Origin: a virus
Lineage: Duplodnaviria; Caudoviricetes
Reading direction: 5' to 3' (one strand)
IMG/VR virus record: IMGVR_UViG_3300032281_000616
Location: 138,206-202,205 of that record
DNA length: 64,000 nucleotides
Shown here piece by piece: positions 319 through 50,471 of the stretch (positions are counted from its first letter, which is position 1; each line of letters opens with the position of its first letter). The notes beneath the pieces were generated by a model that was not told where the DNA came from, made no database searches, and worked only from the letters and a program-made list of their open reading frames with translations. Position numbers and translations under genes: made by a program.

Positions 319-339
319 AGTGTTATTCTAGGTTAGTGT

Positions 340-642
340 TTATTGCTTAGAACCCCATGCCAAGAGTTCCTGATAGGTTTCAAACTCGTAAATCTTAACA
401 TTACCTTCATCATTGAGCATCTTCATACATTCTTGAAGAGTCTCAGTTCCTTCAGAATACCAGTTATTACCCTCAGTCATAGAGAAAAAGAATTTGGGTT
501 TGAATGATAGTTTACCCATATCATCAGATGCAATATATCCCGGATAGTTATCAGATGAAATGAATCCATAATACTTCATGGAATTCACCTCTTTAATATC
601 TACAACGGACTTACTTTGCTCCTCAAAAATTACAGTCTTCAT
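340..642 (-). CDS. hypothetical protein, paralog of 763..1056
   Basis: shared EVNSxKxYGF...LTEGNxW...YxFxTxxELxxW pattern. Confidence 0.75.
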   Translation of the reverse strand: MKTVIFEEQSKSVVDIKEVNSMKYYGFISSDNYPGYIASDDMGKLSFKPKFFFSMTEGNNWYSEGTETLQECMKMLNDEGNVKIYEFETYQELLAWGSKQ

Positions 643-679
643 ATACGTTTATTCTATTCTAGTGTTCTATAAGAAAAAG

Positions 680-741
680 AAACCCTCTCTGAGTCATGAT
701 GAAAAACAAACGGCATTTGTTAATATACTCAGAGAGGGTTT
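680..741 (-). terminator. 15-bp perfect inverted repeat followed by U-rich tract
   Basis: AAACCCTCTCTGAGT..32 nt..ACTCAGAGAGGGTTT, then CTTTTTCTT on the minus strand. Confidence 0.55.
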
Positions 742-762
742 TACACCACCATGATGCAAACT

Positions 763-1056
763 TTATTCAGCCAACCAAGTAAACAATTCTTTAGAAGTAT
801 CGAATTGATATACTGTGAAGTTTTTATTCAAAAGATTTTCGATTGTACCTTGAAGATTACTTCGTGAATGTGAAGGCCATGAATTTCCTTCAGTCAATTC
901 TGTAATGGCTTTCATTTGATAATTTCCACCACCATAACTCACTCTTGAAATAAATCCTTTTGAATTTGTATGATTCTGAACAAACCCATAAAATTTATAC
1001 GAATTCACTTCTGATACATTTACTGTATCCCGACTTGTATTGATCACTTCTTTCAT
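763..1056 (-). CDS. hypothetical protein, paralog of 340..642
   Basis: sequence similarity by eye. Confidence 0.75.
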   Translation of the reverse strand: MKEVINTSRDTVNVSEVNSYKFYGFVQNHTNSKGFISRVSYGGGNYQMKAITELTEGNSWPSHSRSNLQGTIENLLNKNFTVYQFDTSKELFTWLAE

Positions 1057-1095
1057 ATATTCTTGTATTCTTTGAATTTCTTTGTTTCGTTGGAT

Positions 1096-1683
1096 TTAGA
1101 TATTCTCAGCCAACTTAATGAGTTCTTTTACCGTATCCAGAGGAATAGTTTGGCATCCTACCACAACCTTATCCTCATAAACCTTGGCTGTATACTCATC
1201 GGAGATCTTCAGTTCCTTATATTCTCCGAGTGGGGTGACACTCTCGAATGGTACACATACACCACTATCAGTACAAACTACACAGAACTCATGGGTTTTA
1301 AGATAATCATGAACTAAATCAGATTTATTGCTTGTTGATTCCTTGGATACCAAAACAACATTCTTAACCTTTATATGGGCAAATGAACCATTAACATAGG
1401 ATACCTTTTTACCAATAAGTTTGGTGGCTGCTTTGAATTGTTTCATATAGTCTGGTTCAGAACTTACCAGTTCAAACTTATCATCATCCCACCAAGAACG
1501 ATCATTACCCTTAGAATCGACAATATGGATGTCTCTTCCATTACTACCGATTTCATTGATTGTATATGTTTCACTTACATCATAATCGAATGATCCATAA
1601 TGCTTAGGGAGTAGTTTTACTTTGTATCCGATTTTCAAGCCTGCTGGTGTTGTTGTTTTTTCTTTCATTGTGATGATATTCAT
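1096..1683 (-). CDS. hypothetical protein, paralog of 1688..2215
   Basis: shared C-terminus YxAxVxxDxxxVGCQxIP. Confidence 0.75.
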   Translation of the reverse strand: MNIITMKEKTTTPAGLKIGYKVKLLPKHYGSFDYDVSETYTINEIGSNGRDIHIVDSKGNDRSWWDDDKFELVSSEPDYMKQFKAATKLIGKKVSYVNGSFAHIKVKNVVLVSKESTSNKSDLVHDYLKTHEFCVVCTDSGVCVPFESVTPLGEYKELKISDEYTAKVYEDKVVVGCQTIPLDTVKELIKLAENI

Positions 1684-1687
1684 AGTT

Positions 1688-2215
1688 TTATGACAATTTC
1701 TTATGTAATTCTACAATTTCTTCTACCTTGGACCAAGGGATGAATTGGCATCCTACTTTAATGAAATCTTTCTCCACAATAGCTTCATAATCTCCCACAT
1801 CCTTAACAATGTTTGATACAATAGTTAGTTGGTTTACTGGGATGACTAAATCATTGGTCATTCTGAGGGCTACAGAAAAGCCATTCCTTTTAATATCATC
1901 AGTGACTAAAGCGGATGATCTATTAGTAGGTTTGGTAAAGATTTCGATACTTTCTGGAGTGTATGTATCAATAAACATAGTAACAATCTTACCAGATTGA
2001 AGAATGTCATAAGCCTTATTTACTAATTCTTTCATAGTTTCGGGCTTATCAACAACTTCAAATCTAACAGTGAAGAATGATTCATCGGTTCCTTCTACAA
2101 AAAGAAGTTCATCGTCTTCATCATCATAACGATCAAATGTATAAATTTTATCAGCAACCAATGCGAAGTTGGGGTTGATACAACGAATCTTATCACCTTT
2201 CTTTATATTTTTCAT
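1688..2215 (-). CDS. hypothetical protein, paralog of 1096..1683
   Basis: shared C-terminus; SH3-like KKGDKIRC N-terminus. Confidence 0.75.
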   Translation of the reverse strand: MKNIKKGDKIRCINPNFALVADKIYTFDRYDDEDDELLFVEGTDESFFTVRFEVVDKPETMKELVNKAYDILQSGKIVTMFIDTYTPESIEIFTKPTNRSSALVTDDIKRNGFSVALRMTNDLVIPVNQLTIVSNIVKDVGDYEAIVEKDFIKVGCQFIPWSKVEEIVELHKKLS

Positions 2216-2222
2216 ATGTTGA

Positions 2223-2414
2223 TTAGTATGAGAAGTTTTGTGAGAGGGAAGTAGTCACTCCATTAGTCTTAAAGATAGGAGTTGATCTTGAGCTAAGGGA
2301 ACGCTTGATAGAAATGGCACCTTTCTTAGGCTTAGAATATACCATTTGAACCCATGATGTACGAAGCATCTTTTGTGGGGCGCGGAAGTCTGATTTGTTA
2401 TTGTTGCTGGACAT
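2223..2414 (-). CDS. small basic hypothetical protein
   Basis: ATG exactly 6 nt after motif -10 TAGAAT. Confidence 0.55.
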   Translation of the reverse strand: MSSNNNKSDFRAPQKMLRTSWVQMVYSKPKKGAISIKRSLSSRSTPIFKTNGVTTSLSQNFSY

Positions 2415-2442
2415 GCTCTGATTCTAGGTTAGTGTTTGATTA

Positions 2443-2769
2443 TTAAAGATTTGCATCGAATCCATCGCATCCGATAACATTACCCTTATCATCTCTGATA
2501 AGATTACCGGGAGACAATAGATCTTTTCTTGCTGGTGCTGCCATCTTTACCAAGGTTGATACGATATAATAAGTATCATCGACTTGATCCGGTAGATCCA
2601 TGACATCTCCCACTGTATTCTTATAGATAGGAATATTCATGATACTGCAAAGTTCGTGTCTTTGCATATTAACTCTTGGAACCGGATAAGACTTATCAGG
2701 ATCAATCGACATCTTGAAATCTTTTGAGATGATATTGATCGTGTGAGGTGTAAGATTGATGAACTTCAT
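2443..2769 (-). CDS. conserved phage protein with NLTPH motif (start corrected to MKFINLTPH)
   Basis: NLTPH...YIVSxLV...RxDxxGxxIGC pattern; ATG 6 nt after motif. Confidence 0.7.
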   Translation of the reverse strand: MKFINLTPHTINIISKDFKMSIDPDKSYPVPRVNMQRHELCSIMNIPIYKNTVGDVMDLPDQVDDTYYIVSTLVKMAAPARKDLLSPGNLIRDDKGNVIGCDGFDANL

Positions 2770-2794
2770 GTCAGTATTCTGCTTTAGTGTTTCA

Positions 2795-3097
2795 TCAGAG
2801 GATTTTCTTGAGAGCACTGAGGAATCTCTTTCCTGAATTACCAGATTTATTCATAATAAATAAACCAGAATTTAGGGCTGCGATTGCACCAATTCCGCCA
2901 CAATCAGTTCCCCAGATACTTCCACCCTTCAAAGGAACCATTGAAAGCAAGTGATAGTATTCCCCATCACACTCCACTAACTTATCCATATCGTTTGGAG
3001 TAAATGACTTATGAATAGATATCACCCTATCATTCTTGATATTGATATTCCATCCATACTTTTCACATTCTGATTTGAAGTCTTGTGGGGTGATCAT
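2795..3097 (-). CDS. hypothetical protein
   Basis: ORF plus motif. Confidence 0.7.
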   Translation of the reverse strand: MITPQDFKSECEKYGWNINIKNDRVISIHKSFTPNDMDKLVECDGEYYHLLSMVPLKGGSIWGTDCGGIGAIAALNSGLFIMNKSGNSGKRFLSALKKIL

Positions 3098-3145
3098 GTT
3101 TATATCTTAGGCTAGTGTTTCATGAATACTTAACTCTATTTTTCA

Positions 3146-3304
3146 TTATTCTTGAGAGAATTTATCAATCATCCTACGATACTTTTTCTTTTCCCTACGC
3201 ATCGTGCGCTTTTTGGTAGCATTACTACCAACATCGAAACAATCATCGTAATCTTTTTTCCCAGAGTGAATATGAGAACGACTATAATAATTTCGAACTT
3301 GCAT
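3146..3304 (-). CDS. 52-aa basic protein (not in ORF track)
   Basis: MQVRNYYSRSH... translated manually; ATG 6 nt after motif. Confidence 0.6.
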   Translation of the reverse strand: MQVRNYYSRSHIHSGKKDYDDCFDVGSNATKKRTMRREKKKYRRMIDKFSQE

Positions 3305-3380
3305 GTCAGTATTCTACTTTAGTGTTTCATCTATCCCAACTCAGGGTAGTTTAATGAGATACCCTAGCTCATTGTTTTGA

Positions 3381-4910
3381 TTATTCTTCCCGATTGCGGC
3401 GTGATGGAGCATCTGTAAGATGAATAAGACTTTCCATCGCACGAGTCGCTGCAACATAACGAAGATGTTTTTCTTGCTGTTGCATCCATGGAAGAACTGC
3501 GTATTTGGATGGAGAAAATTGCGCATCACCCAACCAGTAAACAGTTTTCCATTCAAGACCCTTAGCCTTATGAATAGAACTGAAGGTCACGATATTCGGA
3601 AGATTCCCATCCTTAGAATCAGTGAACATATCAGCGATAAGTTTCTCCAGAGAATAAAGATCATCCTTTCCGAGAGATTGGACACGTTCAATCAGAATGA
3701 TCATGGTATCCAACTTATCTTCCAATTGTTGCATCTTAGCATAAGAAGCTTTCTCGAACTCCTTATTGAAGAATTCATTAAGTTTGATGATGAAGTCGGA
3801 GAGAGTCTTAACCTTTTTCCACTTATTCACCAGTTTGATAAGATCCTTACCAATATCTTTTCCTTCGATACGGCAACCGATACCTTGACGAATAAGAGCG
3901 AAAGCAAGGGCAACATTAGGAGCATTGTTTCGGCAAAGAATCCCAACATTACGATCAAGCTTGATATTCATAGCTTGATCGACAAACTCTTGATACTTCA
4001 TAGAAGTGACAGAACCCTCACAGTTTCCTTCATAGGCCATGATATCAGGAAAGAACTCTTGAGCAGTCTTAATGATATTCTTTCCACAGCGGTAGCAGAT
4101 GGAAAGTGGAAGCTCTTCACATTCAAAACGCTCACGAATGAGATTCATTGAATCATTCTCAGCACCAGTGAATCCCATAATTGCTTGTCCTTCATCACCA
4201 ATAAAGATACAACGACCATCTGGTTTGACAAGTTTAGCAGCAAGAAGTTTACGACAAACATTTGTATCTTGAGCTTCATCAACGACAACCCAATCATATT
4301 GTTGACCCTTGATATCATAGATCAGGGGAAGATACTGCATATCATCAAAATCAATTGAACGAAAATCAAGATTGGAGTCCCTAAGAACTTGCTTGGCAAT
4401 TTCAATAACTTCACCAAGATCAGCATCAAAGTCTGTATCGATATCATGATGAGTGATGATTTCCATCCATGCTTGAGTATCATCGATAGAAGTTTGACCC
4501 TTAACACCAAACGCATTTTGTTTAGCGAAACCTACAAGTTTAGTAATAAAGTTGCGAGTATATTGAAGATCTTGACGTTGGCAATACTTTTCAGTGATCC
4601 AATAAACTTTACCATTCTTTGGAACATTATGCCAACCTTTAGCTTTATAGAGCATACCCTTACCCGTTGCATGAAATGTTCCAGAAATAGCATTAGGAAC
4701 GCCCATACGAGAAAGTTTCTCTTTAAGTTGCCATGCAGCTTTAGCACCAAAAGCCAACATGATAACATCACCTTTCATGAATTGTGCGCAATGCGTCACA
4801 AGAAAAGTTTTACCGGAACCAGCACGGGCTGGAATGATAAGGTTTCTCTTATTAGGGTTAGGATTACGAACCCAAGATTCGACATCAAGTTGTTGTTGAG
4901 ATAGTTGCAT
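3381..4910 (-). CDS. UvrD/Rep-like superfamily 1 DNA helicase
   Basis: ARAGSGKT Walker A, VVDEAQD, IGDEGQAIMGF, SIHKAKGLEW, YVAATRA. Confidence 0.9.
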   Translation of the reverse strand: MQLSQQQLDVESWVRNPNPNKRNLIIPARAGSGKTFLVTHCAQFMKGDVIMLAFGAKAAWQLKEKLSRMGVPNAISGTFHATGKGMLYKAKGWHNVPKNGKVYWITEKYCQRQDLQYTRNFITKLVGFAKQNAFGVKGQTSIDDTQAWMEIITHHDIDTDFDADLGEVIEIAKQVLRDSNLDFRSIDFDDMQYLPLIYDIKGQQYDWVVVDEAQDTNVCRKLLAAKLVKPDGRCIFIGDEGQAIMGFTGAENDSMNLIRERFECEELPLSICYRCGKNIIKTAQEFFPDIMAYEGNCEGSVTSMKYQEFVDQAMNIKLDRNVGILCRNNAPNVALAFALIRQGIGCRIEGKDIGKDLIKLVNKWKKVKTLSDFIIKLNEFFNKEFEKASYAKMQQLEDKLDTMIILIERVQSLGKDDLYSLEKLIADMFTDSKDGNLPNIVTFSSIHKAKGLEWKTVYWLGDAQFSPSKYAVLPWMQQQEKHLRYVAATRAMESLIHLTDAPSRRNREE

Positions 4911-4959
4911 AAGTGGTGGTTTCTCGTTACGTCCCTATTCTAGGCTAGTGTTTCATCAA

Positions 4960-5160
4960 TTAACCTTCAGTGTCAAACATCTGAACAGTGAAACCTTCCC
5001 CTTCAAAAATTCTATTCTCATAATGAAGATCAAGAGGAATGATTCCATATTCTTCCAACACTTCACCAAATTTATCCTCTTGATCCGAAATAGAATCAAG
5101 ATAATGTAGTTCAGATACCTTATTATTTTCAGTGATAATTACTAGATAGTGTGTAAACAT
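4960..5160 (-). CDS. hypothetical protein
   Basis: ORF plus motif. Confidence 0.65.
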   Translation of the reverse strand: MFTHYLVIITENNKVSELHYLDSISDQEDKFGEVLEEYGIIPLDLHYENRIFEGEGFTVQMFDTEG

Positions 5161-5185
5161 GTTAGTATTCTAGGCTAGTGTTTCA

Positions 5186-5461
5186 TCAGTCAACTACGGA
5201 CCAAATTACATCAGTGACAATTTTTCTCTTCTTCATCGGTAGATTCTTCACATTTTCAATGATTTTTTCACAATCATCGTAAGGAATACCGCGCAAAGCT
5301 AGATTGTTTGCTGTGATGGTTCTATTAAAAGTCTTAATCCATTGAGTTTTTTCATTATTCTTAGCAATTAGATAGAATCGTTTATCGTTAGATCTTTCTT
5401 CAGTGTCGGTGTAATAATCCCAAACCAATTCAACATGATAAGTATCTGGTGAGTTGTGCAT
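5186..5461 (-). CDS. hypothetical protein
   Basis: ORF plus motif. Confidence 0.65.
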   Translation of the reverse strand: MHNSPDTYHVELVWDYYTDTEERSNDKRFYLIAKNNEKTQWIKTFNRTITANNLALRGIPYDDCEKIIENVKNLPMKKRKIVTDVIWSVVD

Positions 5462-5483
5462 GACCTAATCTTAATCTAGTGTT

Positions 5484-5666
5484 TCATACTGTAATATCCA
5501 ACTTAGACTTCTTACGATTCATGATGACTTGAAACCATTCATCCAGTTGATCTTTACCAGATTTTCCACCATAACCCTGAAGTTGATTTTGTCGAATACT
5601 CATCCCCATATTGAGAGCTTTATCAACTAGAAATTTTACTTCTTGTTCTGTGTATGTATTTTCCAT
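5484..5666 (-). CDS. hypothetical protein
   Basis: ORF; stop overlaps motif. Confidence 0.6.
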   Translation of the reverse strand: MENTYTEQEVKFLVDKALNMGMSIRQNQLQGYGGKSGKDQLDEWFQVIMNRKKSKLDITV

Positions 5667-5689
5667 TGTGGTGATTTATTATTTTGAAA

Positions 5690-5801
5690 TCAAGTGATAG
5701 GACTCGAACCTATAATAATGCCGGTTGTGACGATGCGCTCGGGACAGTGCTATTTTACGCTTATCCTATTACTCACTTACCAGTGTGTCTGCCACACTTA
5801 A
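5690..5801 (-). ncRNA. 112-nt tRNA-like RNA (acceptor stem and T-arm, non-canonical middle)
   Basis: TTAAGTG/CACTTGA closing stem; ATAGG-TTCGAGT-CCTAT T-arm. Confidence 0.55.
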
Positions 5802-5875
5802 AATTATCAGAAAATTTGATAGTAACGCTACACCATCATATTCGGGGGTGGATACAGCCAGATTCTTAGACTTAT

Positions 5876-6145
5876 TCACTTCATAGGGACAAGAAGAGTA
5901 ATCATTTGCTCATCCCCATCTTCATCCTTAACATAGAGATTGGTTCCATCGAATGCGATATCTCCACAATCCTTCATAAAGACCAGACTGAATGAATTAT
6001 TATCGTCTTCCCAATCAAATTCCAACCACCAATCTTCATCATTAGAATCTTCCCATGATGGATAAACCAGAACATTATCATCGATAACGCAGGCAGAACA
6101 ATCTTGAATAAGTTTAAGTGCTTCGGCTTGTGTGATGTTTATCAT
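5876..6145 (-). CDS. acidic hypothetical protein
   Basis: ORF plus motif. Confidence 0.7.
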   Translation of the reverse strand: MINITQAEALKLIQDCSACVIDDNVLVYPSWEDSNDEDWWLEFDWEDDNNSFSLVFMKDCGDIAFDGTNLYVKDEDGDEQMITLLVPMK

Positions 6146-6170
6146 AACGTCCTCAGTTTAGGATAGTGTT

Positions 6171-6359
6171 TCAACGATACAAGTAGCGATCAGTATCATC
6201 AGGAAAATCCGAAATGACACAATTATAAAGTTGTTCATCTAAGAAAACATCCATAATAAGTTCGATCTTATTATTAGACAAATGAGGTTCTTCCAACTTT
6301 GTCTTGATATATTCAAGAGCATTTTCTCTTGTAAATCTTAGTGTTGAGTGTGCGCCCAT
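6171..6359 (-). CDS. hypothetical protein (start MGAHSTL)
   Basis: ATG directly after upstream stop; own stop overlaps motif. Confidence 0.6.
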   Translation of the reverse strand: MGAHSTLRFTRENALEYIKTKLEEPHLSNNKIELIMDVFLDEQLYNCVISDFPDDTDRYLYR

Positions 6360-6360
6360 A

Positions 6361-6609
6361 TTATTGTGTTCTTGTTTTACCTTTGGTAATCTTCGGACCA
6401 CCTTCATTGTATCCGGTCCAAGCATTCTGAGATTTATGAACCTTTAGTTCTTCATCGGGTAATGCTTCCCTGATTTCAAACCATTTATATTGTTTAAGAT
6501 TAGATTTTTTCAAAGCATTCATATAGTTTTCACACTTATGCTTTGCATTCGTTTCCAACCTGACCATCTTTTTCTTGGATTTACCAGCAAGTAATGTATA
6601 AAGTTTCAT
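6361..6609 (-). CDS. hypothetical protein
   Basis: ORF. Confidence 0.65.
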   Translation of the reverse strand: MKLYTLLAGKSKKKMVRLETNAKHKCENYMNALKKSNLKQYKWFEIREALPDEELKVHKSQNAWTGYNEGGPKITKGKTRTQ

Positions 6610-6809
6610 CTTTCGTATTGAGGAAATTGTTCTTTGAATGCTTTATAATGTGTCCAATAACCTGATCCTTTTGATGGTGGAAGTTCTTTTCCAATATCAA
6701 AAGTTATTGCATAGAAGGTTTCATCTTTGAATAAATCAGATGGACAAGTCCAAACTTGGCGCATGATTCCATTCACTTCCATATTACAATCAAATTCCCA
6801 ATGTTTCAT
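6606..6809 (-). CDS. hypothetical protein (start MKHWEFD)
   Basis: ATG 1 nt after upstream stop. Confidence 0.6.
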   Translation of the reverse strand: MKHWEFDCNMEVNGIMRQVWTCPSDLFKDETFYAITFDIGKELPPSKGSGYWTHYKAFKEQFPQYER

Positions 6810-6810
6810 A

Positions 6811-7023
6811 TTAGTCTTGTTTGTAATATCTCCTAGCATTAACTTTCTTATTAAATCCTCTCCATCCTCCACCAACTCTTACAAAGTATTTGTAATCAGG
6901 ATAATCTTTAGGATGATCAAGAGACATAATACCATTCTCGGTGGAATGATCGAAATCACGAAGTTTCCAATCTTCTACAAAGAAACCAGAATCATTAGGA
7001 TCAATTTGATAGTCTCGAAGCAT
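6811..7023 (-). CDS. hypothetical protein
   Basis: ORF plus motif. Confidence 0.65.
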   Translation of the reverse strand: MLRDYQIDPNDSGFFVEDWKLRDFDHSTENGIMSLDHPKDYPDYKYFVRVGGGWRGFNKKVNARRYYKQD

Positions 7024-7044
7024 GAGAGTATTATGGTTTAGTGT

Positions 7045-7335
7045 TCAATAACACCGATCAGGATGCCATCCGCGAGGATAACGCTCGATGAGTTTAATTT
7101 CATCAATCAAATAACCGTCTTCTTCTGTATATCTAAACTTAACAACCCCATCAACTTCAACCCTAGCTTCGACAGGAAAATCCTTTCGATCACATCCAAA
7201 ACCTTCATGGATTAAACTTTGATAGACACATTTAGCCGCATACTCAGAATGGTGAGTATCTTCTGATTTATTTTCAGATGATTCACTCCAACCTAATCGA
7301 ATTTCTCTTGGCCATACTAGAATGCTTTTGATCAT
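7045..7335 (-). CDS. hypothetical protein
   Basis: ORF plus motif. Confidence 0.65.
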   Translation of the reverse strand: MIKSILVWPREIRLGWSESSENKSEDTHHSEYAAKCVYQSLIHEGFGCDRKDFPVEARVEVDGVVKFRYTEEDGYLIDEIKLIERYPRGWHPDRCY

Positions 7336-7356
7336 GTTACTATTGTGGTTTAGTGT

Positions 7357-7533
7357 TTAATACTTTCCAACTTGCCACATAAGAACATCAAATCCTGCTA
7401 ATTGATATTTCAAACGCTTCTTATTAGCTTTATCAATATCCTTAATAAAATGTTTCTTATGAAGCACGGGTTCACCAGTTTTCCAAGACCAAACCATAAT
7501 CTGATACTTACCAATATGTTTGTCTTTATTCAT
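7357..7533 (-). CDS. hypothetical protein
   Basis: ORF; stop overlaps motif. Confidence 0.55.
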   Translation of the reverse strand: MNKDKHIGKYQIMVWSWKTGEPVLHKKHFIKDIDKANKKRLKYQLAGFDVLMWQVGKY

Positions 7534-7538
7534 AAGAT

Positions 7539-7754
7539 TCAATTCCTTTCACATGAGATAATTAATTCAGCTTTATGTCCTCTATATGGATCAGATGAAA
7601 GGTAATCATGAAGTTCGGAAGAATATCCATCCCACATAATACCTATACTTTGTCGATCAATTCTATTCAAGATTTTATCTATAGCTTCTTCCACCACACT
7701 TTCAGAAACATCTCCACAATACATAGATACTTCGATAGTTATTTTCTTACGCAT
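7539..7754 (-). CDS. hypothetical protein
   Basis: ORF. Confidence 0.6.
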   Translation of the reverse strand: MRKKITIEVSMYCGDVSESVVEEAIDKILNRIDRQSIGIMWDGYSSELHDYLSSDPYRGHKAELIISCERN

Positions 7755-7765
7755 ATTGATTTATT

Positions 7766-7984
7766 TCATTGTTCAACTTTCACAAATGCAGATTCCCAAT
7801 GACCAAATGCACCGAAAGAAGTATCCATAGGAGCCATCCAAGGTTGATTATGTTCAGAGATAAGAACCCAAAGAGGAAAATCTGGTAATTTTTGAAGGGT
7901 GTAAAGACAGCATACGGGTGTATCTTTTTTATAAAGGAATTGATCACCGGACTTCATCGGAGTGTATTGATTGACCGTTTGCAT
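7766..7984 (-). CDS. hypothetical protein
   Basis: ORF plus motif. Confidence 0.65.
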   Translation of the reverse strand: MQTVNQYTPMKSGDQFLYKKDTPVCCLYTLQKLPDFPLWVLISEHNQPWMAPMDTSFGAFGHWESAFVKVEQ

Positions 7985-8006
7985 GTCCTAATACTATCGT
8001 AGTGTT

Positions 8007-8207
8007 TCATTCATCAAGATCGCAAGCAACTTCAGCAGTTAAAGCCACCAAAAATCTCTCATCAGAATTTAATACTTTCCAATTCTTTTGAATCTCTTGA
8101 GGAACATAATTTCTCCAATCTGATCTCGAATATTGAAAGGTATCATCTGATAGATCGAAATCTTGATAAGATCTACTGAAGTTGTTTTGTAGTGTTGCTC
8201 CAAACAT
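8007..8207 (-). CDS. hypothetical protein (start uncertain)
   Basis: ORF; stop overlaps motif. Confidence 0.5.
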   Translation of the reverse strand: MFGATLQNNFSRSYQDFDLSDDTFQYSRSDWRNYVPQEIQKNWKVLNSDERFLVALTAEVACDLDE

Positions 8208-8397
8208 AATCGATATTACTCATTGCTGTCTCAATACCATCCATGGAATAACAATAGTCGATCATCATTTGATCATACTTATCGAGTTCATTGAACTTAT
8301 TCCAATACTCTTCTGTTTTAAGTTCAGCAAGTTCAAAGGATTCGTGGATGTTAATCATACGAACCTTGATCGCATTAAAGAGTGCTAAATTTCTCAT
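8173..8397 (-). CDS. hypothetical protein
   Basis: ORF. Confidence 0.6.
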   Translation of the reverse strand: MRNLALFNAIKVRMINIHESFELAELKTEEYWNKFNELDKYDQMMIDYCYSMDGIETAMSNIDYVWSNTTKQLQ

Positions 8398-8402
8398 ATA
8401 AC

Positions 8403-8720
8403 TTATTTTTTAGGAACATCACGACCTTCCCAGATCTTAGTAAAGTCTCCAAAAGCTTCATCAATAAGAGGATCTACTGTATAATCACAGATAGTTTCTT
8501 CTGGTTGATTTCCGAGAACAATATGGACCCAGAGTGTTTTACCATCAGGATTCTTAACATAAAGATGAGATTCATCAGTAGCTTCGATTTCACCCACAGC
8601 TTCTTCAGTATTATCCACAAATACTCCACCATCGCCATTATCTACAGAATGTAGAGTCAATCCTTTATTAAGTAGGCACTTAATGATATCTTCAATAACA
8701 GGAGTCCAGTTGTTTTTCAT
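8403..8720 (-). CDS. hypothetical protein
   Basis: ORF plus motif. Confidence 0.7.
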   Translation of the reverse strand: MKNNWTPVIEDIIKCLLNKGLTLHSVDNGDGGVFVDNTEEAVGEIEATDESHLYVKNPDGKTLWVHIVLGNQPEETICDYTVDPLIDEAFGDFTKIWEGRDVPKK

Positions 8721-8742
8721 GTCCTTAGTTTACTCTAGTGTT

Positions 8743-9012
8743 TCAACGATTGAATAGGTCTTCAACTTCAGGAGAACAATCGATTAGAAGAACTTTATTT
8801 TTCTCTTCATATAATTCAAATGCCCTTTTTATTACGAATTCGTCTGTTTCATAAAAAGAATCAGTATATTCAAAATATATGATTCTTTTATATTTGTTAA
8901 AGAAAGACCAGAAACCCACTCTTTCTTTATAGATGTGAAGGCTACTCTCCCAGCTAACCATTTTAGTTATCTCGTAAAAGTAAACATCATCCTTATAGAT
9001 AACCTTTTTCAT
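8743..9012 (-). CDS. hypothetical protein
   Basis: ORF; stop overlaps motif. Confidence 0.6.
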   Translation of the reverse strand: MKKVIYKDDVYFYEITKMVSWESSLHIYKERVGFWSFFNKYKRIIYFEYTDSFYETDEFVIKRAFELYEEKNKVLLIDCSPEVEDLFNR

Positions 9013-9155
9013 GGAAATTTATACGTGTGATTAACCAAAAACCACAAGATTATGGTTATAACAGAGAAAATTTTATCTATTGTGTAAGAGGAGTCATCAA
9101 ATAATACACCTACACAGGTCCATCCGATAAAGAATGCAGTAATTATAAGTAGCAT
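9009..9155 (-). CDS. 48-aa membrane protein (not in ORF track)
   Basis: MLLIITAFFIGWTCVGVLF..., two hydrophobic stretches, ATGA overlap with next gene. Confidence 0.55.
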   Translation of the reverse strand: MLLIITAFFIGWTCVGVLFDDSSYTIDKIFSVITIILWFLVNHTYKFP

Positions 9156-9157
9156 AG

Positions 9158-9451
9158 TTAAATTGTGTAAAATTTGTTATTATCAATAGGATTACCATTA
9201 AGATAAGCCTGACCCTTACTTGTAGAAATACTTACACCGGGAATTCCATTAAGTCTTTCACGGGTGACTCTAGTATTCCAGCCAGATAGAGATACCTCGA
9301 TGACTAAAGTTTTATGATTCTTTATAGCAATCAGATTACCATGAAGAAACATTTCCATTTGATCTGGACCAAATTCCACTGAAGTATTGGACCTATCAAA
9401 TGAATGGTTGAACATAAATGCATTAACAGCATCTTCAGTAATCTTTCTCAT
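9158..9451 (-). CDS. hypothetical protein
   Basis: ORF plus motif. Confidence 0.7.
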   Translation of the reverse strand: MRKITEDAVNAFMFNHSFDRSNTSVEFGPDQMEMFLHGNLIAIKNHKTLVIEVSLSGWNTRVTRERLNGIPGVSISTSKGQAYLNGNPIDNNKFYTI

Positions 9452-9465
9452 ACCCTTAGTTTATT

Positions 9466-9880: not shown

Positions 9881-9882
9881 AA

Positions 9883-10125: not shown

Positions 10126-10146
10126 ATCAGTATTATGGTTTAGTGT

Positions 10147-10542: not shown

Positions 10543-10556
10543 GAGACTATTATGGT

Positions 10557-11105: not shown

Positions 11106-11123
11106 ATTAAAATCTATTACTAT

Positions 11124-11360: not shown

Positions 11361-11374
11361 AGTCTTATTATACT

Positions 11375-13664: not shown

Positions 13665-13665
13665 A

Positions 13666-40770: not shown

Positions 40771-41439
40771 TTAGTGTTTAATGTATTTTTCAGTTAAAGG
40801 AGTTAATGATGATAATTTACCGTCTTCAATCAAATACACTTCACCGTTTTTCGGAGTCTTATATTTTTCGAATTCTTTAACAGACCAACCTAAAATATAC
40901 ATAAGATATAATTTGTTGAATTCTCCATGAGCAACTACAATATTATTCTCATAATTAGTATTACTCTTCATCCACATATCAAATAAAACTACTCTCTGAT
41001 ATGCATCCAAGAAACTCTCACCACCTTCTGGTCTATAATAGAAATTAAAATGATCCTCTGTTTTTTTACCAGCTTCTACAATATCTCTCAGAGATCCCCA
41101 ATTTCTTTCAATCAATAAAGGCATCTCCTGATAATTCTCAATATGATATCCTTCAAAATTGGTGATTTGTCCATGAATGATGTCTGCTGTTTGCCTAGCT
41201 CTTTTATATGGGCTATAAAACATATTGAACCTATAAGGTGGGTTCTTGCTAGGGTATGGATAATCGGGATCGTTTTTATGAACGATATGATCATTTAAAT
41301 CCATGATTCTGTCACCAGATTTTACAGCTTGAGCTTGTCCCTTGAGTGTGATAGATATGTCACAATCCAATTTTTCAAAATAAACAGAGGGGTTCTCGTT
41401 CCCCTCCGAACTTCCGTGGCGCACTAAATACAATTTCAT
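40771..41439 (-). CDS. histidine phosphatase (phosphoglycerate mutase family)
   Basis: LYLVRHG, SPYKRARQT, GGES, VAHG. Confidence 0.88.
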   Translation of the reverse strand: MKLYLVRHGSSEGNENPSVYFEKLDCDISITLKGQAQAVKSGDRIMDLNDHIVHKNDPDYPYPSKNPPYRFNMFYSPYKRARQTADIIHGQITNFEGYHIENYQEMPLLIERNWGSLRDIVEAGKKTEDHFNFYYRPEGGESFLDAYQRVVLFDMWMKSNTNYENNIVVAHGEFNKLYLMYILGWSVKEFEKYKTPKNGEVYLIEDGKLSSLTPLTEKYIKH

Positions 41440-41702
41440 AATAATTCAAAACTTTCCCATCTAATAAGACCCTCTGAGTCGAAGTTGCATCCACCACAAC
41501 CACCACTTCGACCATTACAAATGATACAAACTTTCCTGTGATGCTCTTTATTTAAAGATTTAATAACACCTCTCCCAGAACAATGATAACAACCAGTAGT
41601 AGATTCGTGACCACAAAAATAATCCAATTCACCCTCACCTTCACAAGCAGGACAAATCATTAAACCTGTGGATTCTATAATTTTTTTTACGCTACCTGTC
41701 AT
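41436..41702 (-). CDS. DnaJ-type CxxCxGxG zinc-finger protein
   Basis: CPACEGEG, CYHCSGRG, CIICNG. Confidence 0.7.
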   Translation of the reverse strand: MTGSVKKIIESTGLMICPACEGEGELDYFCGHESTTGCYHCSGRGVIKSLNKEHHRKVCIICNGRSGGCGGCNFDSEGLIRWESFELL

Positions 41703-41857
41703 AATAATGGTAAGTGATTTGTTATTCCTTCAAACTTATAGTCCCAGTGTGGTCCTATTCCTAAACAAGTTATAGGTTCTGTCGGATAGTCTGTATAATA
41801 CGTTAGATTATCTGACTTATACTTATTATCTATAAATTTAGTAATCTTTGTAGCCAT
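41699..41857 (-). CDS. 52-aa protein resembling the C-terminal half of peptidyl-tRNA hydrolase 2
   Basis: TEPITCLGIGP...ITNHLPLL*. Confidence 0.45.
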   Translation of the reverse strand: MATKITKFIDNKYKSDNLTYYTDYPTEPITCLGIGPHWDYKFEGITNHLPLL

Positions 41858-42605
41858 ATCTCGCATCTAGAACAATGTCGGAAGCCAAGTCAACATCAAA
41901 TTTGAAATTGATGATAGATTCATCCATGATTTTCTCTAATTTTTTAAATTCTTCATCAACCAAACCAGACAATTCATCCTTTGTAAAGTTTTCTGGTTTG
42001 GTTTTGATTTCCATCAAAAAATCGTGATAATTAGGATCGAAATCTTTCACTTTAACCATATAATCCCCAGAGGTGAAGAATACTTGACCCACTTTACATA
42101 AACGCAAAATTTGTACAAAATTCTTCGGGCTGTATTCATACTTTTCAACCGCAGCTTTTCGTTTACCACCTAATTGACCAGATCTTTCTCCCGTAGCTAA
42201 TCTAATCTCACTGAACACATAACCCTTCAAAGAAGACTTTAGAATATTAGTTTCAATTAGATCATAACGGTTTTCTCTAATATAGTCAAACAGATTAGAC
42301 TTATATGTGAAGGCATCATCTGGTGCAAATAGAATCTCTAATACTTGCGTATTTGATTTTCTCAAAAGCTTTAAATATCGAGTGAGTTCGTAATAAGTAG
42401 AATCAATTTCATTGTCCTGAACGATAGACTCAATTGTATCAAATCCACTGATATACTTTTTATCGGTGGCTATAAATAAACCACGATAATCGATATCTGA
42501 TGATTCATTATTCAGTCCATACAAAGTCGATCCACCGATAAGCTCGACTAATAATTCACCTCCACAATTTACAAAGGCTGGATGTTCTTTAATTGATTCA
42601 TTCAT
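41838..42605 (-). CDS. Pol-beta-superfamily nucleotidyltransferase (RlaP-like; start MNESIKE)
   Basis: GGSTLYGLNNESSDIDYRG; KSNTQVLEIL. Confidence 0.8.
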   Translation of the reverse strand: MNESIKEHPAFVNCGGELLVELIGGSTLYGLNNESSDIDYRGLFIATDKKYISGFDTIESIVQDNEIDSTYYELTRYLKLLRKSNTQVLEILFAPDDAFTYKSNLFDYIRENRYDLIETNILKSSLKGYVFSEIRLATGERSGQLGGKRKAAVEKYEYSPKNFVQILRLCKVGQVFFTSGDYMVKVKDFDPNYHDFLMEIKTKPENFTKDELSGLVDEEFKKLEKIMDESIINFKFDVDLASDIVLDARYGYKDY

Positions 42606-42756
42606 GTTCAACATTATGATTTAGTGTTTTATTATTTTGAGTTTCGTTAGAAAATGCTAATCTTTGACATGTTCCTACACCTAAACACAATAACAAAATC
42701 AAAATACCTATACCCAAGAATTCAGCAAAGTTAGAGTTATACCATTTATCGTTCAT
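42598..42756 (-). CDS. 52-aa membrane protein (not in ORF track)
   Basis: FLGIGILILLLCLGVG; ends by reading through motif (KTLNHN). Confidence 0.5.
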   Translation of the reverse strand: MNDKWYNSNFAEFLGIGILILLLCLGVGTCQRLAFSNETQNNKTLNHNVEHE

Positions 42757-43051: not shown

Positions 43052-43189
43052 ATGAAAATAGAAAAAAGCAAAATCGAAGTTTTTTTAACCACCGAAATAA
43101 AAAATAAATTAAGAGATCGTGCGAATAAACATGGAACAACTATGTCCGAAATAATCAAAAGAATGTTGGAAGAATATTTAAACAAATGA
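43052..43189 (+). CDS. ribbon-helix-helix DNA-binding protein (not in ORF track)
   Basis: IEVFLTTEIKNKLRDRANKHGTTMSEIIKRMLEEYL; ATGA-coupled to endonuclease. Confidence 0.7.
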   Translation: MKIEKSKIEVFLTTEIKNKLRDRANKHGTTMSEIIKRMLEEYLNK

Positions 43190-43974
43190 AATTAACCAAT
43201 AAATTTGAAAATATACCGGGTGTTTATGTTATAACAAATTTAATCAATGGTAAAGTTTATGTCGGAGAAAGTTTAAAAATACATAAACGTATTTCGGAAC
43301 ATAAATCTAGAAAAGACAGACTTATAAGTAAAGCGTTTAAAAAATATGGTATTGAAAATTTCACAATTTATATAGAATATATGCCAAATTTTTCTAAAAA
43401 TGATTTGTGGGATTTGGAAGAACAGTTAATTTTAAAATTTGATTCATTGTCTCCAAAAGGATATAATATATGTTCGCGTGGCGATGGTCCTGTTGGCTTG
43501 AAACATTCACCAGAATCCAAGCTCAAAATGAGTGAATCACAAAAACTAATAGCAAAATACGGTTCCGAAAATCCACTCAGCAAGCCTGTGTATGTTTATG
43601 GAATAAATGGAAAATTTATCAAACATTTTATAGGTTATACTCAAGCAGGGAGAGAATTGGGGTTATCTCATTCGACTATTATAGGTGTTTTAGATGGAAC
43701 ACATTTGCAAAGCAAAGGATACATATTCAAAAAAGAATATATGGGGAAAGAAATTACACCAATTTCAAATAACGAAATCGAAAGCAAATCAACAAAAAGA
43801 AAAGTTGCTCGCTGTGATATAGAAGGTAATATACTAGAAAAATTCGATTCTGTTTGGGATGCAGCAGTATCCACTAATACAAGTAGACAAGCCATCACAG
43901 GAGCGTTGAGGGGATTAACCAAAAAATCAAAATTTCGACTATGTAAAGGATTCAGATGGAAGTATTTAAATTAA
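43186..43974 (+). mobile_element. GIY-YIG homing endonuclease
   Basis: PGVYVITNLINGKVYVGES; GYN; HSPESKLKMS. Confidence 0.88.
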
Positions 43975-45685: not shown

Positions 45686-46519
45686 ATGAGTAAAATATTT
45701 TATGTATATGGGTTAATAGATCCTAGAAACAACCTACCATTTTATATAGGTAAGGGTACAATTAACCCAAAACGTCGAGGAGTCAGATATAGGAGAATAT
45801 TAGAGCATTTAAGTAAGTCGGATACGGTTAATAAATTTAAAGTTAAAGTAATGGAAAAAATTTTACTAAATTACGACAAAATTCCATATATTATATATAA
45901 ATATTTTGACGATGAAGTGGAATGTTTTACGTGTGAAGTAGAATTAATATCTAAATACGGTAGAAGAGACTTAAAAAGCGGATGTTTAACAAATTTGACA
46001 AATGGAGGTGAAGGTTTTAGTGGTAGAATAAAAACCACTGAGGAGAAATTTAAAATTTCTCAAGCTAAAAAATTGTATTATGAATCAAACCCAGCTAATT
46101 TCAAAGGATGTAAACACACAGAAGAAACGAAAAGATTGATGTCAGAAAAACAACAACAAATGGCGAAACACCTTTCTATGAAAGCCACTGGGAGGAAACA
46201 CACAGAAGAGACTAAACAAAAACTCAGAGAAATTAATTTGGGTAGAAAAATCCCCAAAGAAATATGTCACAAATTCGCTCATCATGGATCAAATAATTGT
46301 CAGGCTAAGACTTACATCTTCGTCTCACCAAATAAAGAATGTTTTATAGTCAATGGAGAATTTAAAAAATTTTTAATCGATAAAGGGTTATCGATACAAA
46401 CATTTAAAAAATTTGTAAATAAAGGAATTATTCCACCACCAACCAATCCAAACCACAATAAAATGACACAAGCTAGGTTAGATTCTACTGGGTGGGAAGT
46501 GAAATATCATTTAGAATAA
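45686..46519 (+). mobile_element. GIY-YIG (LEM-3-like) homing endonuclease with NUMOD3
   Basis: FYVYGLIDPR...FYIGKG; LTNLTNGGEG; HTEETK repeats. Confidence 0.85.
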
Positions 46520-47408: not shown

Positions 47409-47598
47409 CTGTTAATTCTTTCTTTCGGTTATTGATACTTTTTTCTAGATCATCAAGTTTTTTGGTTATCTCTTTAGTTTTTCCAAAAACCTCGTTCTTA
47501 GCTAATTTAAACCATCTCTCTTTTAATGCTGATAAAGTTTCATCATTGGCATATACCGCTTCTGTTTGCTCTTCATTCATAATCTTCTGATTTTCCAT
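47401..47598 (-). CDS. coiled-coil hypothetical protein
   Basis: ORF. Confidence 0.55.
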   Translation of the reverse strand: MENQKIMNEEQTEAVYANDETLSALKERWFKLAKNEVFGKTKEITKKLDDLEKSINNRKKELTDV

Positions 47599-47758
47599 AT
47601 GATGTAAATGATTTTTCCTTATTTGAAGCTTCTTGGTATCCTTCCCAAAACCAAGTATTGGCTAATTCTTCCATCTTATCTCGAATATCATTCAACTCTT
47701 CGGTAGTATACCCCCAAGTTTCATGTAGCTCTTGTAATGCTAGATCTGTAATTGTCAT
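47573..47758 (-). CDS. hypothetical protein (start MTITDLA)
   Basis: ATG 6 nt after motif. Confidence 0.6.
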   Translation of the reverse strand: MTITDLALQELHETWGYTTEELNDIRDKMEELANTWFWEGYQEASNKEKSFTSYGKSEDYE

Positions 47759-47780
47759 GTCCGTATTATTCATTAGTGTT

Positions 47781-48206
47781 TTATTGATCATTCTGGAAAA
47801 TATTTCCAACAATCTTCATGTCATATGCTTCGCAAAGAGGAAATCCAGAGTCTATATCTATACCTTGTAGAACCCATCCATAGTTTTGCCATTCAATCCT
47901 ATCTTTGAATCTAGAATTAGCTAATGTGTATTCTACAATATCTCCTTCGTATATATCTACACTCTCTTTATCAGTCATTCCTGTCCATTGTTGGATGATA
48001 TATGGACTCTCCGAAACAAGAGTCGTTTTATCCATATAAAAATCTGGCTCTACATCTGGTGTGTAATGCTCTCCAACTAAAGCGAAATCATATATTTTTC
48101 CACTGAAAATATCCAACATCCAGTGACTCCAACAATGTAGACTATGGTCATCTTTAGACAACCATCTTTTATTTCTCTTATTCCAAACTCTAAACTTCGG
48201 CCTCAT
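47781..48206 (-). CDS. YopX-family protein
   Basis: KFRVWN...QQWTGMTDK...IYEGD...IVGNIFQN. Confidence 0.85.
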   Translation of the reverse strand: MRPKFRVWNKRNKRWLSKDDHSLHCWSHWMLDIFSGKIYDFALVGEHYTPDVEPDFYMDKTTLVSESPYIIQQWTGMTDKESVDIYEGDIVEYTLANSRFKDRIEWQNYGWVLQGIDIDSGFPLCEAYDMKIVGNIFQNDQ

Positions 48207-48744
48207 AATCAAAAGCTGTTTCTATTTTTTTAATTAGTTCTTCCAATGTAATATCTAAACCTTCTTGGAAATATCTTACATCAAAATTAGTAACTTGGAC
48301 TAATTTCTCTGGTTCTAACCCATACAAAAAATTTACCTTGTTATGATAACCTCCTCGATGGTATGAATAATTTTCATTGTCCACCAATACATTATTCTTA
48401 TTCTCAAATCTTGGAACTGTGTATCCAATATCTTCTCGTGTAAATGTATTTTGGGGTGAGATGCCTAAATCCAAGAGATGAGCAGCCCTCAAAACATAAT
48501 CATTAGTCCCCCAAGAAAGAATACAAATATTATCCAATCCTAAAGTCATCTGGAAGTATGATATCAATTCCTTAGACCAAGATCGTATGAATGATACATA
48601 CCACCCATCGTTCGGTAATTGAAATTTAACACCGTGCCAATATTGGCCATACGTTTCCAACAATTCATCAGCGTGTTTTTCATTACTGGCATACATAGAT
48701 GAGGCCAATGTCTCATCAAAATCCAATACTAATACTTTAGTCAT
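48190..48744 (-). CDS. HAD-superfamily phosphatase
   Basis: LVLDFDETL; LVDN. Confidence 0.75.
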   Translation of the reverse strand: MTKVLVLDFDETLASSMYASNEKHADELLETYGQYWHGVKFQLPNDGWYVSFIRSWSKELISYFQMTLGLDNICILSWGTNDYVLRAAHLLDLGISPQNTFTREDIGYTVPRFENKNNVLVDNENYSYHRGGYHNKVNFLYGLEPEKLVQVTNFDVRYFQEGLDITLEELIKKIETAFDYEAEV

Positions 48745-49475
48745 AATTTATATTCTTTGTTAGCATCAAATTCAAAAATCTCATTAATATCCAAACACTG
48801 ATAGTATACACCATTTCTTTCCTCTTTCTTAGAATTGTGGAAGTGACCACTTACGAGCGTTTTAGCCTCTGATTTTTCCAGAATAGAGGACATTAACTCT
48901 CTTTGAGTATAACAATCTGATAATAGTGTTGGATCTTTATCAATAGACCATTGAAATCTCACATGTAGAGTATTCGTTGGATGATTGAAGTAATCTGGTG
49001 CATCATGCGAGAACATGATATCACATTTCTCCACGTTATCAATAGGTATTGTGGGTTCATCATACCAATAATCAACACCTTGTTTTCGATTACATCTATC
49101 AACGCTTATTCCACCACCTACTAGAATAGCTTTCTTCCCATTTGGGAATTCTACATATTCGTGATCTTTGACGAGAACAATATTTGACCATTTACTGTCC
49201 CAAATTTTGGGATAAGTTGCATCATGATTTCCTCTTATAATGTAATACATCACATCTATAGCTTGACATAGTTTATTGATTCTATCCAGCCAAGATAAAG
49301 CGTTCTCGATAGCATACGAGATATTACCAAAACCAAGTCCACTGTCGCCACAGTGAACCACATCACTCCCATCAGGAATATTAATATTTAAAATATCATA
49401 TACTATAGAAGTAGAGTGGGTATCGCCAATTAAAATGACTTTATTGCTTCTGAATTTAAATCTATTTTGTCTCAT
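48741..49475 (-). CDS. calcineurin-like metallophosphoesterase
   Basis: IGDTH, HCGD, RGNHD, SHDAP, GHFH. Confidence 0.85.
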   Translation of the reverse strand: MRQNRFKFRSNKVILIGDTHSTSIVYDILNINIPDGSDVVHCGDSGLGFGNISYAIENALSWLDRINKLCQAIDVMYYIIRGNHDATYPKIWDSKWSNIVLVKDHEYVEFPNGKKAILVGGGISVDRCNRKQGVDYWYDEPTIPIDNVEKCDIMFSHDAPDYFNHPTNTLHVRFQWSIDKDPTLLSDCYTQRELMSSILEKSEAKTLVSGHFHNSKKEERNGVYYQCLDINEIFEFDANKEYKL

Positions 49476-49514
49476 AATTTGGTGTATTTGGTGTAGGATT
49501 TACTAAATAATAAC

Positions 49515-50471
49515 ATGGATGAAGTTAGAATAATTGAAATGTATACGCAGGGGAAGGGTTCTCCGACTATAGCTAAAGAATTCGGAACCAATTTTTATGA
49601 GATTTTAAAAGTTTTGAAGCGAAATAAAATCGAGCTAAGAAGTGCGAGAAAAAGTTCTAAAAGGACCATATTCGATGAAAAATTTTTTGAAAGAATAGAC
49701 ACCGAAGAAAAGGCTTACTTTCTAGGTTTTATTTTAGCAGATGGGTGTATAAGTGTCAAGCGTAATTATCTGAAAATTGGAATCTCCAGCAAAGATATAA
49801 TAATTTTAAAAGAATTTAATAGGATAATGAAATCGGATGTAAAAATTCACACATACCCACATAAAGGAAGCTTCAGTGGTGAACGATACGAATTATCGTC
49901 TCTCACCTTTATATCCCCAAAAATAGTATCTGATTTAAACAATCTCGGAATCGGTGAAAGGAAGACATTTACAGTGATTCCTCCTATAATAGATGAATCA
50001 TTGGAACATCATTTTTGGAGAGGAGTAATGGATGGGGATGGTCATATTAGTTTATATAATACTAAAAACTTAAAACACGTCCCCAATATTGAATTCGGTA
50101 TATGCGGAAACATGTCAACTATGTCATCCCTATCTACATTTTTAACAAAATATGGTATAGATCATAAGATTACACCAGATAAATCAATTTTTAGAATTAG
50201 ACTAACTAATAGGCGAGCATTAAAAATTTTGGATATCTTATATAAGAATTCTACGATTTTTCTTGATAGAAAAAAGGCGAATTATATGATGTATAAAAAT
50301 GCTAGACAAGAAGCGGACAAATCTAGTCCTAAAAATCTAGGAATAAAAAAGACAAAATCTGGTAATTATACATCTTCATCATTAATAAGTATACATGGCA
50401 TACAAAAACGCATCGGAACCTTTAAAACCTTTGAAGAAGCTTTAGAAGCGCAAAATAACTTTAGTGTTTAA
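49515..50471 (+). mobile_element. LAGLIDADG homing endonuclease (two motifs)
   Basis: AYFLGFILADGCI and FWRGVMDGDGHI. Confidence 0.88.

Follow-up and report, generated by a model that had tools for sequence, protein, structure and literature searches.

A 64,000-nt stretch of an uncultured freshwater T4-like phage genome (Duplodnaviria; Caudoviricetes), positions 138,206 to 202,205 of IMG/VR record IMGVR_UViG_3300032281_000616 and hereafter called the window, contains 53 copies of the octamer AAACACTA (the box), all on the minus strand and most of them at a fixed distance from a -10-like hexamer and an ATG. In a co-occurring sister strain, five gene insertions or deletions are joined inside copies of this element, scarlessly and with one intact hybrid promoter left behind. 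The element is probably a leaderless early promoter that also provides general recombination with a short patch of homology, and the region would then be shuffled in the manner of the promoter-early stem-loop (PeSL) cassettes rather than by a dedicated site-specific system. The first-pass annotation of this stretch had proposed that each small open reading frame (ORF), together with the motif downstream of it, behaves as an integron-like unit that is inserted, deleted, or shuffled by recombination at the motif, without an integrase in the window.

The complete record is a 202,205-bp genome with a CheckV completeness of 100% and terminal repeats. Its matches (rIIB, GP88, T4_Y16D, Kyano_Gp96, and a RecA/UvsX homologue) agree with the T4-like label. 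Positions given below are those of the window unless the genome or a strain is named.

Structure of the element and its overlap with gene ends

The array of 53 boxes extends from 334 to 60958 on the minus strand, and 3.38 ± 1.87 copies would be expected from shuffled sequences. Genome-wide, 67 copies are found on the minus and six on the plus strand, concentrated at 135.8-199 kb. A logo over the aligned copies reads A(-3) T(-2) n AAACACTA N3 TAnAAT N5 (C/T) ATG, where the negative positions are counted from the box. The ATG is located exactly 15 nt past the box in 35 of the 53 copies, and the -10-like hexamer TAnAAT ends 6 nt upstream of it (again 35/53). This gap equals the usual distance between a -10 hexamer and the transcription start, and the simplest reading is thus a promoter fused to the start codon, which would give rise to a leaderless message. 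If the ATG is set to +1, the whole element covers ~26 nt, with the invariant octamer at -23 to -16 and the box centre near -19.5. Before the -10/ATG grammar, the octamer is exact or one base off (26 sites) and otherwise unrelated, with at least three mismatches. This dichotomy shows strong selection on the octamer. Examples of the one-mismatch variants lie near 649-680 and at 7039, where the box reads TGAACACTA. Relatives with ~70-75% nucleotide identity have kept the box, the spacing, and the strand coupling. In R1, the best relative, all 46 of 46 copies lie on one strand, and the same holds for the coupling in R2-R4 and L002.

Other signals commonly associated with such elements were searched for in the same sequences. 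At the expected -35 site, 7-12 nt upstream of the box, nothing is conserved (at most 0.42 bit), and sigma-70-type -35/-10 pairs (TTGACA-N16-18-TATAAT) occur at chance level (92 versus 90.9). Terminator-like sites are also at chance (12 versus 8.4 ± 3.3), and the 52 nt upstream of the box have the same minimum free energy as controls (p = 0.23), with no excess of stem-loops. A Shine-Dalgarno-like motif is not enriched before any gene class, and a Shine-Dalgarno-like tetramer precedes one of 43 promoter-linked genes; judging from this pattern, the translation start mechanism of the host would have to be independent of Shine-Dalgarno sequences. A literature search for the octamer as a phage promoter yielded nothing relevant. 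The Pfam models of MotA (MotCF) and AsiA had no match, but controls for these searches gave no signal either. Thirteen genes of the region are promoterless and begin in ATGA overlaps. Further to the left, outside the window (positions -2323 to -574; genome 135.88-137.63 kb), ten motif promoters without an ATG are followed by strong hairpins of down to -29.5 kcal/mol in 62 nt; positions 6406-6704 of R1 (contig L026) belong to the same observation. In the relative R4 (contig L012, 1615-1679), the box repeats every 20-24 nt. These hairpin-linked or tandem boxes may represent promoter-driven small RNAs or a promoter array.

The stop codon of the upstream gene overlaps the box in exactly 26 cases, in agreement with the number of about 26 given in the first-pass annotation: ten stops at -1 (TAA followed by ACACTA), nine at -2 (TAA or TGA followed by AACACTA), and seven at +6 (AAA CAC TAA/TAG). 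Another eight upstream stops are found at -5 (TGAtnAAACACTA), in the conserved TGAT. In 49 of the 53 copies at least two reading frames are closed within -6 to +9 of the box, compared to 11% of random positions. The six C-terminal KH ends described earlier all translate as such; one is formed by AAA CAC TAG inside the box at 9466-9474 (minus strand), and the others are at 10557, 11375, 38107, 40771, and 50461. A seventh candidate of this kind, ORF 25451-25558, is spurious and overlaps tRNA-Ile. Translation also reproduces the two reported cases of read-through: gene 36259-36981 runs through the box and the -10 hexamer as KTLNHN (36259-36302, minus strand), and ORF 42598-42756 does so across the box at 42622-42629. 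The AT at -3/-2 is retained in 12 of the 17 copies whose upstream stop lies elsewhere. Because it is kept where it does not serve as a stop, this AT is a part of the promoter and not only of a stop codon.

Promoters resemble each other more closely than random pairs do when they are one to five positions apart (lags 1-5, z 3.3-3.8), but not at lag 10; the near-identical blocks that had been quoted for neighbouring genes are all present, with the one-mismatch box in the copy at 7039. A regional gradient in the -10 hexamer, from TAGAAT at the left end to TATAAT further right, underlies much of this local similarity. For the genes 13100-13267 and 21972-22208, which had been singled out for their similar beginnings, the common start codons were found again, but these amount to the first four codons (MKQY) and no paralogy of the two genes is detectable.

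Differences between two strains

Searches of a curated phage collection at the DNA and protein levels gave only distant matches and no close relative, and the GP88-like protein, searched in viral and metagenome contigs, had no relative closer than R1 (~93% for this protein, ~70-75% nucleotide identity overall). R1-R4 and L002 were obtained by a pattern scan of viral contigs for the coupling of box, spacing, and strand, with R1 (L026) being contiguous over 51 kb. A second strain was first detected in a run of the same study, via public contigs aligned on window positions 1-20000. The sequence of this sister strain (S) was then recovered through exact-protein look-ups, from two assemblies, as a JGI contig of 139 kb and a Logan contig of 17.9 kb with 99.99% identity between them; the pieces used for comparison are L074, L072, L069, and L066. 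The window's own structure is also present in one ENA scaffold and one 66-kb Logan contig. As each of the two structures is independently assembled, the differences between S and the window are unlikely to be assembly artefacts. Besides the window type and the S type, the exact-protein look-ups returned only one further sequence, a 7.4-kb contig (L070) from a third strain that is more distant and whose variable blocks likewise adjoin promoter edges.

Over 55 kb, S and the window form a gene-by-gene mosaic with 62-100% identity, which implies a frequent exchange of single-gene alleles. One example from the comparison of window positions 1-54100 with S is the segment 16972-17376, which has 71% identity while its neighbours have 96%. 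Of the window's early region, 30% has no counterpart in S. The structural differences, 37 in number, were classed by inspection of both junctions.

Five of them (events 20, 23, 26, 32, and 34) are insertions or deletions that run from one promoter copy to another and leave no scar, and 20-36 nt are shared at each joint. In event 32, the near-identical promoters with boxes 2785-2792 and 3320-3327 (minus strand) enclose two genes, 2795-3097 and 3146-3304, with a further promoter (3113-3120) inside. Window positions 2797-3294 are absent from S and 36 nt are shared; the contig joint leads from 2781 to 3317, with 15 nt exact. Gene 2795-3097 has an 84% identical orthologue beside the same neighbours in R1, and event 32 is therefore probably a loss in S. 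Event 26 concerns the promoters with boxes 10141-10148 and 10558-10565 (minus strand), which have 20 nt of exact identity and flank the ORFan 10147-10542. Here, positions 10151-10547 are absent from S, the 20 nt are shared, and S has one hybrid promoter. The near-identical pairs of these two events, 2785/3320 and 10141/10558, had both been flagged in the first-pass annotation. Event 34 took place at 334-680 (minus strand); the promoters involved are that at 334-341 and a variant, GAACACTA-gaa-TAGAAT, which directly precedes gene 340-642. Positions 342-635 are absent from S, 30 nt are shared, and the joint lies within the common TAGAATAA/promoter tract; it is also seen as a contig joint from 322 to 649 (8 nt exact). 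Events 32 and 34 were each detected independently as contig joints.

The remaining two clean events are additional genes in S. At the promoter 20249-20280 (box 20268-20275, minus strand), S contains an extra cassette of 734 nt with a 151-aa ORF between two identical 32-nt promoter copies (event 20). Behind the promoter 15058-15087 (box 15077-15084, minus strand), it contains a 799-nt DNA-methylase gene (PF00145), and the downstream promoter copy is degenerate in S (event 23). The gene product is a DNA cytosine methylase (L066, 9172-9996). The promoter pairs that recombined rank high in similarity, namely within the top 17 of 181 window pairs (p ~0.01), and the S pair, that of event 20, is the first of 140. 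The cargo of the cassettes consists of ORFans for which no family was found.

Two replacements (events 13 and 30b) are bounded by a promoter on either side. Between the boxes 32753-32760 and 31843-31850 (minus strand), the window has one gene, the ORFan 32045-32737, and S has 3,072 nt with four genes (event 13). These code for a PRPP-synthetase-like protein, a 104-aa protein without Pfam match, a NADAR protein, and a Band_7 protein (L069, 1607-4640). Event 30 involves three promoters (4946-5688, minus strand; boxes 4946-4953, 5176-5183, and 5477-5484), which in the window accompany the ORFans 4960-5160, 5186-5461, and 5484-5666. A single different cassette of 64 aa is found in S between the outer promoters 4946 and 5477. 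The pair 5176/4946 shares 23 nt exactly.

In eight further cases (events 11, 17a, 22, 24, 27, 29, 30a, and 35), strain-specific promoterless genes fill the space from the upstream stop, or from an ATGA overlap, to the 5' edge of the box, sometimes with repeats of 5-6 nt such as ATTGAT or ATTAT. One such insert in S, at 13283-13297 (minus strand), comprises three additional promoterless genes (741 nt) that separate the upstream stop from the box, and is flanked by ATTGAT (event 24). At 35201-35214 (minus strand), an extra gene of 568 nt with an HD domain starts in an ATGA overlap and has ATTAT at both ends (event 11). The proposal that the mobile unit is an ORF plus its downstream motif does not fit these eight inserts. 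Junctions right behind the -10/ATG characterize events 8, 9, and 18. In event 3, the promoter is shifted from its ATG: the box stands directly before an RNA-ligase gene in S, and the window has 190 nt in this place.

The motif is absent from the joint in events 6, 7, 14, and 21, whose junctions are stop/start overlaps. In events 6 and 7, extra small genes of S are inserted exactly at (T)TATGA(AAT) overlaps (window 41699-41705 and 41433-41441), with 7-9 nt shared. Such overlaps are a second kind of recurrent seam, in which no promoter is involved. Homing-endonuclease genes account for events 0, 1, 2, 4, 17b, 19, and 25. Events 5, 12, 16, 28, and 33 are in-gene or illegitimate joins with scars or filler, with the first codons of the deleted gene being retained in event 33. 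Events 10, 15, and 31 are divergent segments within genes and not insertions or deletions, and event 36 is too complex for assignment. A joint from 8742 to 1 (runs X3 and X4) was not counted; its ~30 nt of promoter similarity may just reflect a similar promoter downstream of gene 91-318. The skips from 13297 to 16162 and from 16183 to 18811 in X1, with sides of 20-22 nt, are repeat mapping artefacts.

At a greater phylogenetic distance, single promoter-gene units occur in a different order; R1 is largely collinear, but single genes have swapped their order in four cases and differences at the gene level are many. On the minus strand, tRNA-like 3' ends are found at ~5690-5770 (GGTTCGAGTCC...) and ~21780-21925 (GTTCGAATC...), and strain-variable segments adjoin both. 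They were not called by ARAGORN, which reports only tRNA-Met 11547-11622 and tRNA-Ile 25490-25561.

Proposed mechanism and competing explanations

According to the favoured reading, AAACACTA-N3-TAnAAT-N6-ATG would act as the promoter of early genes in a clade of uncultured T4-like freshwater phages, and each message would begin at the start codon, the -10 hexamer ending six bases before it. With the genes packed end to start, the stop codon of the upstream gene usually falls on the A/T-rich 5' border of the promoter (tGAT-n-AAA...) or on the TA(A/G) within it, and these sequences close two or three reading frames. The element is also the genome's most abundant repeat of 25-35 nt and for this reason may offer short stretches of homology to general recombination. 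A possible enzyme is encoded by the RecA/UvsX-family ORF at genome positions 60764-61528. Unequal exchange between promoter copies would then remove, insert, or swap promoter-gene units without leaving a scar, as one of several routes of gene flux in the region.

The position of the breakpoints gives a divided picture. Junctions were counted over the 28 non-endonuclease events, and 27 of the resulting 56 fall in promoter elements, which make up an estimated ~3% of the DNA. Breakpoints placed at random with respect to the motif had been named as the outcome that would speak against shuffling at this site, and by position they are far from random; however, gene junctions with a motif do not attract more of them than those without, and an estimated ~43% of all gene junctions carry a promoter. 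Several results weigh against the favoured reading. Boundaries of presence and absence between S and the window are not enriched at motif-bearing junctions (10/18 versus 20/46, odds ratio 1.6, p = 0.42). Synteny breaks in R1 fall on motif junctions about as often as conserved adjacencies do (28/60 versus 7/14, odds ratio 0.9), at a low power owing to the 14 conserved adjacencies. Adjacent genes do not differ more strongly in identity across a promoter than elsewhere (p = 0.31), and promoters are on average not conserved islands between divergent alleles, being 91% identical compared to 91-93% in the flanks. If junctions fell independently on gene boundaries, promoters would by our own estimate from the ~43% share bound ~5 of 28 events at both ends, close to the 7-8 observed. 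Selection for intact genes alone could explain all one-sided junctions; those at the 5' edge are accounted for in this way because only the gap between stop and box can take up a gene without killing the downstream promoter. The TAGAAT/TATAAT gradient recurs in the relatives at matching positions, and part of the local promoter similarity is therefore ancestral or functional and not due to recent homogenisation. Moreover, the base-level events are few and come from contigs, not reads, of one close strain pair. The only point that favours homology-driven exchange over independent boundary junctions is that the joints are scarless and in register.

These data also bear on the possibility that the element is nothing but a promoter. 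The box would then have no special role in plasticity, the stop overlap and the cassette-like look would be by-products of gene packing, and recombination would occur as at any abundant short repeat. We consider this unlikely, although the absence of enrichment at gene junctions in both S and R1 and the shared -10 gradient are what it would predict, and the AT at -3/-2 behaves as a promoter part rather than a selected stop. The similar events 6 and 7 at overlaps with 7-9 nt in common, and the seven homing-endonuclease insertions, likewise agree with it. On the other hand, the five scarless events with their 20-36 nt of joint homology are a sizeable share of the ~28 non-endonuclease events and involve the most similar promoter pairs, and events outside promoters leave remnants or filler (28 and 33), unlike the five clean ones. 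This alternative differs from the favoured reading in emphasis alone.

Homing endonucleases are a rival source of gene flux in their own right. Genes of this type lie at 12298-12957, 27492-28472, 43186-43974, 45686-46519, and 49515-50471 on the plus strand and at 20945-21640 and 50879-51649 on the minus strand, and they constitute seven of the 37 differences from S. The unit 27492-28472 (event 17) is flanked by a duplicated promoter and gene start (28501-28508 and 27448-27455). The LAGLIDADG gene 49515-50471, absent from S (event 1), is inserted inside a promoter, where it separates the box 50462-50469 from its gene 48741-49475. These two loci would suit a scenario in which gene flux is mainly driven by endonucleases together with their co-conversion tracts, and in which the promoter duplications and near-identical blocks were left behind by endonuclease cassettes carrying a promoter and a recoded gene start. 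As a general explanation this is very doubtful, since an endonuclease gene is absent from the five clean events and from most ORFan cassettes, and neither endonuclease remnants nor recoded duplicates are found near the ORFan cassettes of the five clean events.

Least credible of all is an integron-like system, in which a dedicated recombinase, unrecognised or host-encoded, would cut and rejoin AAACACTA and thereby move single-gene cassettes. It could draw on the invariance of the octamer, on the many breakpoints that adjoin its 5' edge, and on cassettes that are single small ORFans. However, the complete 202-kb genome has no match to either the tyrosine (PF00589; positive control found in 14/14 genomes) or the serine recombinase family (PF00239; positive control likewise found), so that the lack of an integrase noted for the window extends to the entire phage. 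The site is neither palindromic nor folded, all window copies have one orientation, and the rigid spacing to the -10 hexamer and the ATG is that of a promoter. The cassettes carry promoters of their own. Exchange at a fixed point is not what the joints indicate either: the clean ones lie within long identical tracts and depend on this flanking identity, most differences in gene content are found at other seams, and the site plays no part in many events. What stands of the first-pass proposal is recombination at the motif as such, in the form of the five clean events and the two promoter-bounded replacements, together with the reordered promoter-gene units of the more distant relative.

Relation to known systems and significance

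PeSL cassettes have been described in the T4-type phages RB49/phi1, PST/T4, and nt-1/KVP40 (Arbiol et al., 2010, PMC2839356; Comeau et al., 2014, PMC4122927). Their crossovers map between the -10 hexamer and the ATG or the Shine-Dalgarno sequence, general homologous recombination over patches of <50 bp has been proposed, and no dedicated recombinase is known; mini-circles arising from exchange between neighbouring elements are a further feature (PMC2839356; PMC4122927). As in the PeSL system, small ORFans are here preceded by a reiterated, predicted early promoter, which is present in 53 copies over 61 kb of a T4-like genome, and the region is hyperplastic; close relatives differ by deletions, insertions, and replacements with joints inside promoter copies. 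Unlike PeSL, the element has no stem-loop or terminator, no -35 hexamer, no Shine-Dalgarno sequence, and no spacer to the gene; it is a unit of ~26 nt overlapped by upstream stops, with no room for a terminator. Because it shares the two behavioural features of PeSL and lacks the three compositional ones (stem-loop, -35, and Shine-Dalgarno sequence), it is classified as a minimal PeSL-like variant. The element is a new form of this type, set apart by its terminator-free and predicted leaderless build and by natural events resolved to the base level. A more far-reaching version of the mechanism seems improbable to us, in which a phage or host protein would bind AAACACTA, replace -35 recognition in leaderless early transcription, and stimulate exchange between copies, the units would travel as mini-circle cassettes among co-infecting T4-like phages of freshwater, and the three-frame stops would be selected as insulation of any incoming gene.

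The arrangement resembles integron cassettes (attC, IntI) in its rows of single small genes divided by a recurrent short site and in a gene content that varies between strains. It differs from them by the absence of an integrase, by an oriented promoter in place of a folded imperfect palindrome (attC), by a -10 hexamer and an ATG in each unit instead of a common Pc promoter, and by an exchange that depends on extended identity.

Early promoters of T4 have sigma-70 -35 and -10 hexamers, and T4 middle promoters have a MotA box centred at -30. The elements described here are similar to both in that dozens of near-consensus copies would drive small early genes on one strand; unlike them, the box is centred near -19.5 and not at -30 or -35. 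Leaderless promoters with a -10 hexamer adjacent to the start codon are reportedly also used by the Thermus phage phiYS40, as described by Sevostyanova and colleagues in 2007. The leaderless '-10 adjacent to ORF' promoters of Deinococcus-Thermus (PMC12340547) are comparable in having a -10 hexamer fixed a few bases before the start, no Shine-Dalgarno sequence, and a dispensable -35. In contrast to the promoters of Deinococcus-Thermus and phiYS40, the present ones have an additional invariant octamer directly upstream of the -10 hexamer and belong to a T4-like phage, and their leaderless function is a prediction.

If the favoured reading is correct, promoter-mediated modular shuffling of the PeSL type would also exist in a freshwater branch of uncultured T4-like phages and would work with an element of much smaller size, and the effect of a 26-nt element would mean that the stem-loop is not needed. 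The two co-occurring strains provide a natural, base-resolved set of events, in which roughly a quarter of the non-endonuclease events go through promoters; the remaining gene flux is due to homing endonucleases, start/stop overlaps, and illegitimate joins. The cargo that is moved, comprising ORFans, a DNA methylase, and nucleotide-metabolism genes, is the kind of accessory gene content that can be expected to affect host adaptation and counter-defence.

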